This document shows positions 44,912 through 47,828 of a stretch of DNA of 64,000 nt, piece by piece. This DNA comes from a virus, in the IMG/VR virus record IMGVR_UViG_3300037485_001282, positions 32,001 to 96,000 of that record, one strand, 5' to 3'. The notes under the pieces were generated by a model, which did no database searches, had not been told where the DNA came from, and worked only from the letters and a program-made list of their open reading frames with translations. A program made the position numbers and the translations under genes. Every line of letters begins with the position of its first letter. Within the stretch, counting starts at the first letter, position 1.

Positions 44912-45601
44912 ATGACACAAGAACAAATTAATGAGAGTTTAGCCAATGATATACTTCAATACGAAGAACTTAAAGAAGGTATCTTCAGTAAAATGGGAGA
45001 AATAGGCGCTGGTATCGGTGGAATATTCAGTAACATAAAGAAAAACTTTAAAGATGGACGTAGAGATAAAGTTATAAACAACTTTAAAAATGAAATGACT
45101 AAGGCAATGCAAGCCGATGATTCGAAAGTAAAAAGCTCAATCGAAACATTAAACCAAGCCTTAAATAAAAGAACAGCCGATCTTGAAAAAGTTAAACAAA
45201 ATATTCTAAAAAAATCAGCAAATGATCCACAACTCCAACAAGCACTAAAAGCAGCAATGGACCAAAATACTCAAGATATTAAAAAATTCCAAAATTCTTT
45301 AGCAACTTTCCAAAAAGCAATTACTCCACCAGCACCACAAGCAACTAAAGCACCACAAACTGCTCCAACTCAAGCACCTAAAGCAAAACCAGCTCCTAAA
45401 AACTCTGCTAAAAAGAAACCCCAAGCACCTAAAGTTCCTCCAGTTGCTCCTACTCAACCCCCAGCCGCTCCAGCACCTAAAGCACCTAAAAAATCCACTA
45501 AAAAGAAACCTAAGCCACTCCCAGAAAATAAAAAGCAAATCCTAGAAAATAGTAAGTTGATGCTAGTTTCGGTAAATAAACTCTTAAAGGATCACAAATG
45601 A
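44912..45601 (+). CDS. Late protein with coiled coil and Pro/Ala/Lys-rich tail; putative head internal protein
   Basis: Late promoter, (I/L)xE motifs (INES, LKEG, LPEN, ILEN), histone-H1-like PAK region. Confidence 0.55.
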   Translation: MTQEQINESLANDILQYEELKEGIFSKMGEIGAGIGGIFSNIKKNFKDGRRDKVINNFKNEMTKAMQADDSKVKSSIETLNQALNKRTADLEKVKQNILKKSANDPQLQQALKAAMDQNTQDIKKFQNSLATFQKAITPPAPQATKAPQTAPTQAPKAKPAPKNSAKKKPQAPKVPPVAPTQPPAAPAPKAPKKSTKKKPKPLPENKKQILENSKLMLVSVNKLLKDHK

Positions 45602-46050
45602 ACCCAGAAGAAAAACAAAAGTTTCTTAAAGAATCTAAAAAGATCCTCAAAGCAACTTCTAAGTTAATCGAAAATAAATTTAAAGGAACTCAAAGTTCCG
45701 ATGAAGTTCCTCCTGGTAGAAAGTCACCTAAAGTTTATGGCGATTTCACTATAAATGATGCAATACAGATAATAACTCAAATCAGAAACAAACAAGGAAA
45801 CCCCAAGGCTATAGAGAAAATTTTATATAATATTATGGACTTCTCAGTAAACGGCAACGGTAAGGTTGAGGCGCAACTGCTTAGAACAGAACTAGTTAAT
45901 ACAATAACTGAGTTTAATGCTAATTATTCTTACGCAATTTCTAAATTAACCGAATATATCAAATCAGAGGAATCTTCGAGAGATCTTGATAGCCCAGTAA
46001 CAAAAACAGATAAACGAAGATTTAAAATACCGTCTGGGCCAAGTAAATAA
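45598..46050 (+). CDS. Hypothetical late protein
   Basis: Coupled to the upstream gene; FLKES/LIEN motifs. Confidence 0.6.
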   Translation: MNPEEKQKFLKESKKILKATSKLIENKFKGTQSSDEVPPGRKSPKVYGDFTINDAIQIITQIRNKQGNPKAIEKILYNIMDFSVNGNGKVEAQLLRTELVNTITEFNANYSYAISKLTEYIKSEESSRDLDSPVTKTDKRRFKIPSGPSK

Positions 46051-46094
46051 AATTCGGGTTATTCGAGCATATGTAATTTTATTTCAGTAGCTTA

Positions 46095-46133
46095 TATAAA
46101 TAATATTGACTTTTTTCAAAAACAGGATATAAT
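46095..46133 (+). promoter_or_regulatory. Tandem late (TATAAATA 46095-46102) and sigma70-type (TTGACT-N16-TATAAT 46106-46133) promoters of the tRNA operon
   Basis: Seen directly; the -10 box ends 7 nt before the leader ATG. Confidence 0.75.
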
Positions 46134-46140
46134 AGAAAAC

Positions 46141-46209
46141 ATGAACCAAGTACTATCATTATCATCGTCCAGTTATCTCAGTTCCTATCTCGGAACGGGG
46201 CGAGGGTAA
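46141..46209 (+). CDS. Putative attenuator leader peptide MNQVLSLSSSSYLSSYLGTGRG
   Basis: 22 codons; codons 5-17 are all Ser/Leu/Tyr, matching the downstream tRNAs. Confidence 0.75.
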   Translation: MNQVLSLSSSSYLSSYLGTGRG

Positions 46210-46235
46210 TATTGTAGTTTTCTACAGTAAACTCC

Positions 46236-46271
46236 AAAGCCCCGAATCGAAAGACTCGGGGCTTTTTCTTT
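46236..46271 (+). terminator. Intrinsic terminator (attenuator) upstream of the tRNA array
   Basis: AAAGCCCCGA-a-TC-GAAA-GA-c-TCGGGGCTTT followed by TTCTTT. Confidence 0.88.
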
Positions 46272-46297
46272 GACAAATATATAGGTTAAAATTATAT

Positions 46298-46379
46298 GGG
46301 GATGTGGCGTAATGCAGCCGCGCAAGTCTTAGGAACTTGTACCTTCCATGGTGTGTGGATTCAAGTTCCACCATCCCCA
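46298..46379 (+). tRNA. tRNA-Leu(UAG)
   Basis: GGGGATG/CATCCCC acceptor, CAAGT-CT TAG GA-ACTTG anticodon arm, long V arm, GTGGA-TTCAAGT-TCCAC T arm, A73; CCA not encoded. Confidence 0.92.
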
Positions 46380-46383
46380 CTAC

Positions 46384-46465
46384 GAGTATGTCCCATAGCG
46401 GCAATTGGGAGGCGCTGTAAACGCCTTGGATTTATCCTTCGAAGGTTCGATTCCTTCCATACTCA
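46384..46465 (+). tRNA. tRNA-Tyr(GUA)
   Basis: GAGTATG/CATACTC acceptor, AGGCG-CT GTA AA-CGCCT, V arm, GAAGG-TTCGATT-CCTTC, A73. Confidence 0.92.
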
Positions 46466-46470
46466 TTTTT

Positions 46471-46554
46471 GGATCGTTAAATCATCGGGGATGATCTTTG
46501 CTTGGAAAGCAAATGGAGGATAAAAACCTTGAGTTTCGACTACTCAGCGATCCG
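46471..46554 (+). tRNA. tRNA-Ser(GGA), 8/4 type
   Basis: GGATCGTT/AGCGATCC, D stem ATCATC/GATGAT, TTTGC-TT GGA AA-GCAAA, V arm, GAGT-TTCGACT-ACTC, G73. Confidence 0.85.
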
Positions 46555-46560
46555 TTATCT

Positions 46561-46641
46561 GGAAAACAAAGCAGTCAGGGATTGCCGTCGCCTCGAAAGC
46601 GAATGGACCTTCGGGTTGCGTTTCGAGTACGCTGTTTTCCG
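46561..46641 (+). tRNA. tRNA-Ser(CGA), 8/4 type
   Basis: GGAAAACA/TGTTTTCC, D stem GCAGTC/GATTGC, TCGC-CT CGA AA-GCGA, GACC-TTCG-GGTT V arm, GCGT-TTCGAGT-ACGC, G73. Confidence 0.87.
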
Positions 46642-46644
46642 TTT

Positions 46645-46728
46645 GGAATATCAACTCTACAAGGTAGAGCCTTCTTTGCTAAAGAAGTGGTGCCTAATAA
46701 GCATTTGGGGCAGTACCAAGATATTCCG
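46645..46728 (+). tRNA. tRNA-Ser(GCU), 8/4 type, atypical T loop
   Basis: GGAATATC/GATATTCC, D stem CTCTAC/GTAGAG, CTTCT-TT GCT AA-AGAAG, V arm, TTGG-GGCAGTA-CCAA, G73. Confidence 0.83.
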
Positions 46729-46733
46729 TATTT

Positions 46734-46820
46734 GGCAAGTTAACCAGTCAGGCGATTGGCGCTGTTTTGAAAGCAGAGGGTTCCCGAATAGGGAATGGGT
46801 TTCGATTACTCAGCTTGCCG
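46734..46820 (+). tRNA. tRNA-Ser(UGA), 8/4 type
   Basis: GGCAAGTT/AGCTTGCC, D stem CCAGTC/GATTGG, CTGT-TT TGA AA-GCAG, GTTCCC/GGGAAT V arm, GGGT-TTCGATT-ACTC, G73. Confidence 0.87.
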
Positions 46821-46826
46821 TTATTT

Positions 46827-47828
46827 TTAACCCCAATTAAAATGGGCTTCTATTTCACTTTCATTTAACTTAGGAACTTCCCAGTTAAGTAAGTTAAAGA
46901 ACTTTGAGAGTGGATTAAAGAAGGCTTTTTCGAATTGATGTTCTCTATCGACATATTCTTCAATATTCAATTCATTAATCCACTTTTCTTTATATGAGAT
47001 TACGTTACTATTCCAGTCTCTACCTGTTTTGGTGTGGATAAGTTTAATCTTATCGCCTTCATATATCAAATCATATTTAGTTCTTAAATCCTCGTTCTCT
47101 AATAGAACATCATTATAGAGAATACTTCCTCTAATGTGAATAGGGGTTCTGTGGAACTTTCCTTTCTCATTGAAACTATCTAGGTACTTTTTAAGATTAT
47201 TTGCTGTACTTGGAAAGGCAATATCGTCAATATCAGCAACTAAAAATTTGCTTCTAACATCTTTTAATTTACTTATAATCAACTCTCTATTAGTAGTTTT
47301 AAGCATCTCAAACAAGCAGTCTTTCATATGCTTCTTAGCTAATTTAGGAGTTGAGGATCTTACGAGTTCAATTCCAGTTGCTTTAAGTTTATCGACAGCC
47401 ATCTTAGATTCACCATCATAAACTACCCACATTATATACTTCTTTTTCTCTAGGAAAAAGGATCTTCTAGAAACTTTTTCAACTTTAAAGGAAATCTTAT
47501 TTTCCTTGCAGTTATAGCGACTTAAAGATAACGCATCCATCGAACGGTTAATAATATTCGATACAAAGGGAACTATTTCGTCGTTAATAAATTTAATGAC
47601 TGGTTCTATTTTTTCTGGGTCGGTATTATTCCGATCAGGTATATGAAGAGAATCCAGGATTTTACCTATATCGACATAAAGCGAATTATGTACTAAGATA
47701 CCATTAGCGAAAAAGGTATTTGGTGCGTCTTCCATACCTATGTCATAAACTTCTTGTTCGACTGTCCCGTCCGAAACAAGTTCGATTGATTCTATTTCAT
47801 CTATATAATAATTCATTTTATTCCTCAT
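46827..47828 (-). CDS. gp43: Family B DNA polymerase, C-terminal part with split-intein C half
   Basis: VYDIGM...FFANGILVHN|SLYVD, then KKKY, GIELVRSSTP, TPIHIRG. The real start may be the second Met (MNYY, 47816), which has a GAGGA RBS. Confidence 0.92.
   Translation of the reverse strand: MRNKMNYYIDEIESIELVSDGTVEQEVYDIGMEDAPNTFFANGILVHNSLYVDIGKILDSLHIPDRNNTDPEKIEPVIKFINDEIVPFVSNIINRSMDALSLSRYNCKENKISFKVEKVSRRSFFLEKKKYIMWVVYDGESKMAVDKLKATGIELVRSSTPKLAKKHMKDCLFEMLKTTNRELIISKLKDVRSKFLVADIDDIAFPSTANNLKKYLDSFNEKGKFHRTPIHIRGSILYNDVLLENEDLRTKYDLIYEGDKIKLIHTKTGRDWNSNVISYKEKWINELNIEEYVDREHQFEKAFFNPLSKFFNLLNWEVPKLNESEIEAHFNWG
47685..47828 (-). mobile_element. Split intein C-fragment (DNA polymerase), 44-48 aa
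   Basis: Blocks F/G ending in HN, Ser+1. Confidence 0.9.

Follow-up and report, generated by a model that had tools for sequence, protein, structure and literature searches.

The 143.7-kb IMG/VR virus record IMGVR_UViG_3300037485_001282 carries a single tRNA operon, and the short leader in front of it is likely to be a leader-peptide (ribosome-mediated) transcription attenuator, with a 22-codon reading frame rich in Leu, Ser and Tyr codons followed by alternative RNA helices and an intrinsic terminator. We analyzed bases 32001-96000 of this record (33% G+C), a stretch of 64,000 nucleotides referred to here as the window, and all positions are counted from its first letter. The phage would probably make its Leu, Tyr and Ser tRNAs only in response to a shortage of them at the ribosome. 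This verdict rests on structure prediction, on conservation among homologous leaders and on benchmarks against known attenuators, from which we infer translation of the leader frame, its coupling to polymerase and its response to tRNA supply.

RNA Elements of the Leader

An earlier reading of the letters alone, the original prediction, had described three pairings in the leader: a 1:2 protector, a 2:3 antiterminator and a 3:4 terminator. All the motifs that it named are found at their coordinates. The elements are listed below; segment 1 is defined by the minimum free energy (MFE) structure and the RNAalifold consensus.

46158..46179, plus strand: segment 1, UC-rich Ser/Tyr/Leu codons
46181..46196, plus strand: inner hairpin GUUCC/GGAAC, formed by GTTCC 46181-85 with GGAAC 46192-96
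46196..46205, plus strand: segment 2, CGGGGC 46196-201 plus GG 46204-05, whose partner is segment 1 or segment 3
46210..46229, plus strand: middle hairpin of 7-8 bp with a UUUU loop, 46210/11-17 with 46222-28/29
46234..46244, plus strand: segment 3, CC 46234-35 and GCCCCG 46239-44, common to the antiterminator and the 5' arm of the terminator
46236..46271, plus strand: intrinsic terminator, stem 46236-48 with 46253-65, GAAA loop, U tract 46263-71

All energies given in this work are nearest-neighbor predictions. The 1:2 pairing joins TCGTCC (46165-70) to GGGCGA (46198-203) with one U.G pair, and the 2:3 pairing joins CGGGGC (46196-201) to GCCCCG (46239-44). The middle hairpin is predicted to nucleate the 2:3 helix and to stack under it. 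The terminator stem has a GCCCCGA/TCGGGGC core with an A.C mismatch, and TTTTTCTTT lies directly 3' of it. Alone, this hairpin is worth -18.7 kcal/mol and is followed by UUUUUCUUU, with 27 nt to tRNA-Leu. When 46136-46275 is folded without constraint, the MFE structure combines 1:2 (enclosing GUUCC/GGAAC), the 46211-28 hairpin and the terminator, which is the terminated state. Its energy of -41.9 kcal/mol (z = -3.8) is matched by none of 200 shuffles.

Two of the originally predicted pairings need amendment. The extension of 2:3 by GGGT/ACTC is one possible register, but RNAfold favors G46204-C46235 and G46205-C46234, and homologs of the leader (discussed below) show UGG/CCA at this place. The pairs of the 1:2 protector are present in the window and an equivalent 1:2 occurs in every homolog, but the exact pairs are not conserved: 2 of the 6 are broken in homolog L126 and 1 in L127, and the 1:2 that each homolog forms in its own register is worth -8.4 to -11.6 kcal/mol. 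Within segment 1, the stretches that pair with the G-rich tail of the reading frame are 46158-63 and 46165-70, with an alternative register at 46164-69 plus 46176-79, and the 1:2 that RNAalifold finds conserved joins the invariant UCUC 46176-79 to GGGG 46197-200. In 321 of 1000 trials, codons 2-17 recoded synonymously form a 1:2 that is just as good, and the helix is therefore a generic property of UC-rich Ser/Leu/Tyr codons facing a G-rich tail. Stalling is accordingly expected to be most effective at about codons 10-15, not at the earliest codons.

Folding Under a Ribosome Footprint

Two transcripts, one ending before terminator segment 4 and one of full length, were folded with the RNA masked up to and including the 12 nt that follow the first base of the A-site codon. 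In the shorter transcript, the mean pair probability of 2:3 is 0.85-1.0 for stalls at codons 5-15, falls to 0.5 at codon 16, and is 0 from codon 17 to the stop codon, where the ribosome covers segment 2 together with the 5' arm of the middle hairpin. This on/off geometry is reproduced in four of four sequences, the window and three further distinct homologs. It bears out the claim that a ribosome at the stop (46207-09) masks segment 2. The companion claim, that a stall on the early Ser/Leu codons frees segment 2, holds as far as the freeing goes, but the best codons are those at about 10-15.

Ribosome-free transcripts of increasing length have 1:2 as their MFE structure up to nt 100, 2:3 at nt 102-120, and 1:2 plus 3:4 from nt 122. 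Leaving 1:2 for 2:3 by the direct path means crossing a barrier of 10-13 kcal/mol; a leader that is not translated should therefore remain in 1:2 and end in termination. At full length, with stalls at codons 11-15, the homologs keep 20-55% antiterminator.

The strength of the 2:3 pairing exceeds chance expectation. When segment 1 is masked, the terminator 5' arm gains -13.0 kcal/mol by pairing with the sequence upstream of it, compared with -2.8 +/- 2.4 in dinucleotide shuffles of 46141-46235, none of which (0 of 1000) reaches that value. Without the mask the net gain is only -5.9 kcal/mol, because 1:2 competes, and 151 of the 1000 shuffles reach it. In these predictions, the contrast between masked and unmasked gain is the signature of a switch. 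The leader is also an outlier among the 17 terminator-like hairpins of the genome, in which the next largest gain is -7.5 and the median -2.6 kcal/mol.

For a benchmark, the identical script was run on the hisL, trpL and thrL leaders of Escherichia coli, taken from NC_000913.3. In these leaders the 5' arm gains -7 to -14 kcal/mol from pairing upstream, and in the phage leaders it gains -10 to -19. The terminator minus antiterminator difference runs from -4.7 (trp) to -21 (his) kcal/mol in E. coli and from -0.5 to -9.7 in the phage leaders, and the antiterminator-to-terminator barrier is 3-16 and 3.5-8.5 kcal/mol, respectively. These predicted values make the 2:3 helix no less competitive than its counterparts in the proven trp, his and thr attenuators. 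The original prediction had staked itself on a competitive 2:3 helix, and this part of it stands: 2:3 dominates the transcript that ends before segment 4 under the footprint masks.

Promoters and the Leader Reading Frame

The elements upstream of the switch and the reading frame that overlaps it are the following.

46095..46102, plus strand: TATAAATA, a putative T4-type late-promoter-like box read in the sequence, invariant in 5 homologous leaders
46106..46133, plus strand: sigma-70-type promoter TTGACT-16-TATAAT, 11/12 matches, conserved in homologs
46141..46209, plus strand: 22-codon leader open reading frame (ORF), stop TAA 46207-09, codons 5-17 all Leu, Ser or Tyr

The end of the -10 box lies 7 nt before the ATG, so a transcript from the sigma-70-type promoter would be leaderless. 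No promoter-like site is present between the leader with its terminator and tRNA-Leu. One candidate there, TTGACA at 46270-75, was rejected as a tRNA promoter: the -10 candidates at 16-17 nt (TTATAT and TATATG) each lack a key position, the second reads TATACG in homologs, and the start would fall inside tRNA-Leu. The spacer 46266-97, which includes this TTGACA right after the U tract, is nevertheless conserved in all homologs (26/32 positions) without a usable -10 box. It could serve as a context for RNase P or RNase E, or as a pause or re-start element.

The 13-codon run of Leu, Ser and Tyr is the longest of its kind in the six-frame translation of the genome. These are the amino acids of the operon tRNAs, and the ORF has at least one codon for each tRNA downstream. 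Its frame, length and stop position are kept in the 4 distinct homologs, whose peptides together with that of the window read MNQxLS[LY]SSSSYLSSY[LS]G[TA]G[RQ][GW]. Codon 11 is kept as Ser through AGT, TCT or TCC, and codon 17 is Leu CTC in the window and Ser (AGT, TCG or TCA) in homologs. Codon 7 is Leu or Tyr, so that positions 7 and 17 vary only within Leu/Tyr/Ser, and codons 12-15, TAT-CTC-AGT-TCC, are fully invariant. This pattern fits selection on the tRNA family called, not on RNA sequence or peptide chemistry. The retention of Ser across switches between AGT and TCN argues that the leader ORF is decoded.

Conservation of the Leader

Homologous leaders were found via the upstream proteins on contigs L126, L127/L128, L130 and L154, all from other metagenomes. 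The conservation set thus comprises 4 distinct, close homologs, and alignment counts refer to 5 sequences. The homologous cassettes share with the window TATAAATA, the promoter, the ORF, the switch, the terminator and the order of the tRNAs. Leader identity is 88-91% over 211 nt, compared with 34-89% for the flanking proteins. In L154, the cassette is intact and the 150-codon ORF that precedes it in the window is absent.

Within the leader, only 2 of 32 positions vary in segment 2 and the terminator stems, versus 23 of 99 elsewhere (Fisher p = 0.04), and indels are confined to loops and linkers. Both of the varying positions among the 26 of the terminator stem lie in its A-U base, and in L126 and L127 one inserted nucleotide replaces the A.C mismatch with an A-U pair plus a bulge. 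The inner hairpin keeps 5/5 pairs in every homolog, with A-to-G changes converting two of them to U.G, and the changes in the middle hairpin likewise preserve pairing (U.G to C-G, G-C to G.U). CGGGGC at 46196-201 is invariant, including two third-codon positions in an AT-rich genome, and so is GCCCCG of segment 3. By comparison, 3 of the 5 residues encoded by the G-rich tail vary (T/A, R/Q, G/W) through changes at 46195, 46202 and 46204, positions that flank the invariant 46196-201. The tail residues GTGRG thus change around a fixed core, which sustains the earlier proposal that the GC-rich tail is explained by pairing rather than by the peptide.

The cassette has a narrow distribution. In the window, 44912-46826 holds two small ORFs and the tRNA cassette between uvsX and the gene for the C-terminal part of the polymerase. 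In the more distant relatives L156-L158, pol adjoins uvsX (about 110 nt apart in L157/L158) and the tRNA cassette is absent; L159 was too short to place. Since these relatives have the two genes adjacent without the cassette, the block is an accessory insertion of a narrow clade. The searches below gave no further copies, although relatives are present in 24 public sequencing runs, among them run X10 described further on. A blastn search of 45900-46900 against 50,697 phage records found no match. In IMG/VR, the upstream protein found no homolog, the C-terminal part of the DNA polymerase found 36 loci of which none had the cassette, and a segment 2/3/4 pattern found 84 matches, all unrelated and mostly GC-rich. 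IMG/VR searches with a tRNA-Tyr 28-mer and with the terminator found none. A metagenome scan with a tRNA-Tyr 23-mer returned 23 contigs, all of them bacterial DNA of 65-71% GC without the leader, and a terminator-pattern search of genome contigs returned 2 unrelated terminators only. The phage tRNAs on L014 and L024, fetched in passing, have no such leader, and the arrangement is therefore not universal.

One contig from an RNA library (X5, 100% identical) covers 46256-46421; it starts in the terminator 3' arm, includes tRNA-Leu and ends within tRNA-Tyr. Such a contig would fit readthrough transcripts, but carry-over of DNA is possible and we do not count it as support.

Proposed Mechanism

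Transcription would start from the promoter at 46106-33, giving an mRNA that begins at or next to the AUG, and a ribosome would translate the 22-codon ORF. When Leu-, Ser- and Tyr-tRNAs are plentiful, the ribosome would reach the stop at 46207-09. Segment 2 would then be covered, as would the 5' arm of the middle hairpin, leaving the 3:4 hairpin free to form and to stop RNA polymerase at the U tract. When one of these tRNAs is scarce, the ribosome would stall within about codons 8/10-15, covering segment 1 and leaving segment 2 free. Segment 3 could then zip onto segment 2 as it emerges, atop the preformed middle hairpin, which would sequester the terminator 5' arm and let the polymerase read into the tRNA genes. 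If the leader is not translated, 1:2 would form first and termination would follow. The product of the operon would relieve the stall, giving negative feedback on the supply of these very tRNAs.

In its most direct form, the leader would be a homeostat of tRNA supply, in which the speed of the ribosome on Tyr, Leu and Ser codons (with codons 12-15 as the core) sets transcription of the cognate tRNAs. We lean only slightly towards this form. If it holds, the class II tRNAs Leu, Tyr and Ser would be replaced on demand, and the arrangement, taken with analogous cases in unrelated phages, would be a general, so far undescribed mode of tRNA-gene regulation. Possible triggers are two very Ser-rich late proteins that drain Ser-tRNA, or host tRNAs that are degraded or cleaved by a defense nuclease.

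Evidence Against and Alternative Explanations

Several observations weigh against attenuation and must be set beside the evidence above. The first concern loading of the ribosome. The ORF is leaderless when transcribed from the early promoter, in a phage where 71 of 101 long ORFs have a Shine-Dalgarno site at 5-8 nt and where the other sigma-70-type promoters (TTGAC-N-TATAAT) give leaders of 20-30 nt. The sole AGGA lies 13 nt upstream of the ORF and is present only on longer transcripts. We infer, on the other side, that leaderless loading at a 5' AUG would tightly couple the first ribosome to polymerase. Among the codons, Leu CTA, which is the Watson-Crick cognate of the UAG anticodon, is found at codon 5, beyond the stretch in which stalls work best, and Leu CTC (codon 13) needs wobble reading. 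In energetic terms, the 2:3-to-3:4 barriers found with findpath are modest (3.5-8.5 kcal/mol), and the terminator wins at full-length equilibrium in the window, so antitermination must be kinetic.

The comparative evidence has its own weaknesses. No pair is changed on both sides, and 2:3 and the terminator core are invariant among the 5 sequences; covariation gives no verdict because segments 2, 3 and 4 never vary in the homologs. The homologs are few (4 distinct) and close, and their conservation could come in part from a recent spread of the cassette. A further case is a 1274-nt contig of a freshwater metagenome (run X10), which carries 46112-46283 of the window with 3 differences, including C46235T, which keeps a G.U pair. 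This contig diverges after 46283, so that the same leader and terminator are followed by different sequence. That sequence begins GCATCGGTAGCCCAA and resembles the 5' end of another tRNA, and the cassette may therefore gate a different first tRNA in the X10 phage.

The foremost alternative is that the hairpin is simply a leaky terminator of the ordinary kind, or an insulator, whose role is to end transcripts coming from upstream. The tRNAs would then come from constitutive partial readthrough, the ORF would be untranslated or irrelevant, and 2:3 would be incidental. The leaderless ORF in a phage that otherwise uses Shine-Dalgarno sites, the lack of covariation among homologs and the equilibrium preference for the terminator in the window all agree with such a view, as do the intrinsic terminators annotated before phage tRNA blocks elsewhere (phiCbK). 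A leaky terminator does not, however, account for an alternative pairing that is so strong an outlier (0/1000 shuffles; 1 of 17 genome terminators) and that toggles exactly with ribosome position, nor for the longest Leu/Ser/Tyr run in the genome mirroring the tRNAs or for Ser kept across codon-family switches. We judge it unlikely.

It is also conceivable, but quite improbable, that the hairpins serve RNA processing or stability, as a 5' protective structure, as an RNase E/P entry point for the tRNA precursor, or as a released small RNA. The stretch 46266-97 is conserved too (26/32 positions), which would suit a processing role, and there is a weak, sub-threshold resemblance to a small-RNA model (Yfr10, 28 bits against a 43-bit cut-off). 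The Rfam matches are, however, below threshold and consistent with chance. A GC-rich stem with a directly adjoining 9-nt U-rich tract is a termination signature, and processing needs no mutually exclusive structures tied to positions in a reading frame.

Very improbable, finally, is a functional 22-residue peptide, that is, a small phage protein with its own promoter and terminator and a codon match that is coincidental or part of a co-adapted cassette: the ORF does have a promoter, a start, a fixed length, a terminator and a conserved Ser/Tyr-rich core, but the tRNAs would be left without a promoter, the C-terminal residues vary over 6 invariant underlying nucleotides, and residues 7 and 17 swap among the chemically unlike Leu, Tyr and Ser, a better fit to codon sensing.

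Genome Context and the tRNA Operon

Because UvsX, a DnaB-type helicase and a split family-B DNA polymerase are encoded nearby, the record is that of a T4-like phage. The leader sits between a 150-codon ORF (45598-46050) and the tRNA cluster, which is the sole one that ARAGORN finds in the 143.7-kb record.

46298..46820, plus strand: regulated genes, the whole block, six tRNA genes of which one is known by fold only
46298-380, plus strand: tRNA-Leu(TAG), ARAGORN
46384-465, plus strand: tRNA-Tyr(GTA), ARAGORN
46470-555, plus strand: tRNA-Ser(GGA), ARAGORN
46560-642, plus strand: tRNA-Ser(CGA), ARAGORN
about 46645-46728, plus strand: cloverleaf with GCU anticodon, by fold only
46734-820, plus strand: tRNA-Ser(TGA), ARAGORN

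The cloverleaf in the gap 46643-46733, with an 8-bp acceptor and a 6-bp D stem, was missed by both ARAGORN and Rfam and is probably a fourth tRNA-Ser. The operon thus encodes Leu, Tyr and Ser tRNAs exclusively, which are class II tRNAs only. The tRNA-Leu(TAG) of the window has a D arm and variable region markedly unlike those in L126, L127, L130 and L154, and its tRNA-Tyr, unlike tRNA-Leu(TAG), is nearly identical to that of the homologs; the first gene of the operon seems, from these comparisons, to have been exchanged or to be evolving fast. The anticodon arm of the phage tRNA-Tyr exactly matches that of high-GC bacteria despite the 33% G+C of the phage, and its 23-mer (46407-46429) occurs exactly in 23 metagenome contigs of 65-71% G+C, in bacterial tRNA-Tyr genes.

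Two large Ser-rich ORFs lie outside the window, at record positions 136784-141355 (plus strand). They encode 659 aa (27% Ser) and 862 aa (17% Ser), and poly-Ser runs are present in both. These proteins could plausibly account for the demand for four Ser isoacceptors.

Significance and Comparison with Known Systems

Leader-peptide attenuation is a textbook mechanism, and to our knowledge the attenuators described so far control only amino-acid biosynthesis genes and a few aminoacylation genes. The genes regulated here are instead six tRNA genes. For the tRNA genes of bacteria and phages, the accepted view is one of control at the promoter, by growth rate and the stringent response, and by processing. 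A full-text literature search turned up no description of leader-peptide attenuation of tRNA genes. As far as we have found, the class of mechanism is known, and what is new is the tRNA-gene target, the closed feedback on tRNA supply and the phage setting.

If the proposal is true, this would be the simplest possible feedback on tRNA supply, with sensor codons read by the very tRNAs that are controlled, and it would explain how phages with tRNA arrays avoid making tRNAs when the host pool suffices. It would also provide a compact, portable sensor of codon-specific translation speed. With 131 nt, three amino acids and one operon, the case is small, and E. coli-type systems offer an easy test of it. 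It also touches on the question of why a phage carries the particular tRNAs that it does, which in this operon are of class II only.

The closest parallel is E. coli trpL, which likewise has a short ORF, 1:2, 2:3 and 3:4 helices and an intrinsic terminator, and in which a ribosome at the regulatory codons frees segment 2 and one at the stop masks it. The energetics are similar, with a terminator minus antiterminator difference of -4.7 and a barrier of 5.8 kcal/mol for trp against -0.5 to -9.7 and 3.5-8.5 for the phage leaders. There is no sequence similarity between the two. Unlike trpL, the phage leader would control tRNA genes rather than biosynthetic enzymes and would sense three amino-acid families; it is probably leaderless, has an extra hairpin inside the 2:3 loop and sits in a phage.

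The thrL, ilvL and hisL leaders resemble it in that their long runs of regulatory codons cover more than one amino acid (Thr and Ile in thrL; Ile, Val and Leu in ilvL). The run comprises 13 codons in the phage leader and 12 Thr/Ile codons within codons 4-16 of thrL, and in all of these leaders only part of the run lies inside the effective stall window. The bacterial leaders report amino-acid supply through charging, whereas the phage loop would close directly on tRNA abundance, the regulated product being tRNA. His_leader (RF00514) has no match in the genome. The pheM leader of pheST is a leader-peptide attenuator that governs part of the translation machinery in response to the supply of a charged tRNA. 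It differs from the phage leader in that its target is the mRNA of an aminoacyl-tRNA synthetase, its codons sense a single amino acid and it lies on a bacterial chromosome.

T-box riboswitches bind uncharged tRNA directly, without a ribosome or an ORF. They share with the phage leader a terminator/antiterminator decision that reports tRNA status, but the phage element has a conserved ORF, and Rfam searches of the window and of 46080-46860 found no T-box match. At gathering score, tRNA alone reaches threshold in the window and no leader family does; at E up to 1 on 46080-46860, only sub-threshold, unrelated matches appear.

A similar layout, which counts in favor of the attenuator reading, occurs in the unrelated Caulobacter phage phiCbK.

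L165 2541-2868, equal to JX100813 49540-49867: phiCbK gp083-terminator region, a mini-ORF and an annotated terminator before a tRNA block

There, gp083 (45 codons, 71% Ser/Ala/Leu/Pro/Lys and also Thr-rich) is followed by an annotated rho-independent terminator that ends 23 nt before a tRNA block in the order Pro-Pro-Lys-Lys-Leu-Leu-Leu-Ala-Ser-Ser. Two more terminators are annotated in phiCbK, before a Glu-Asp block and before a Phe-Val-Ile-Ile-Val-Gln-Gln block. Quick folding of the gp083-terminator region gave no clear switch. Both phages thus place a mini-ORF and a terminator ahead of a tRNA block, but the leader described here belongs to an unrelated lineage with unrelated sequence, and it is the smaller and cleaner case, with one operon, three amino acids and class II tRNAs only.
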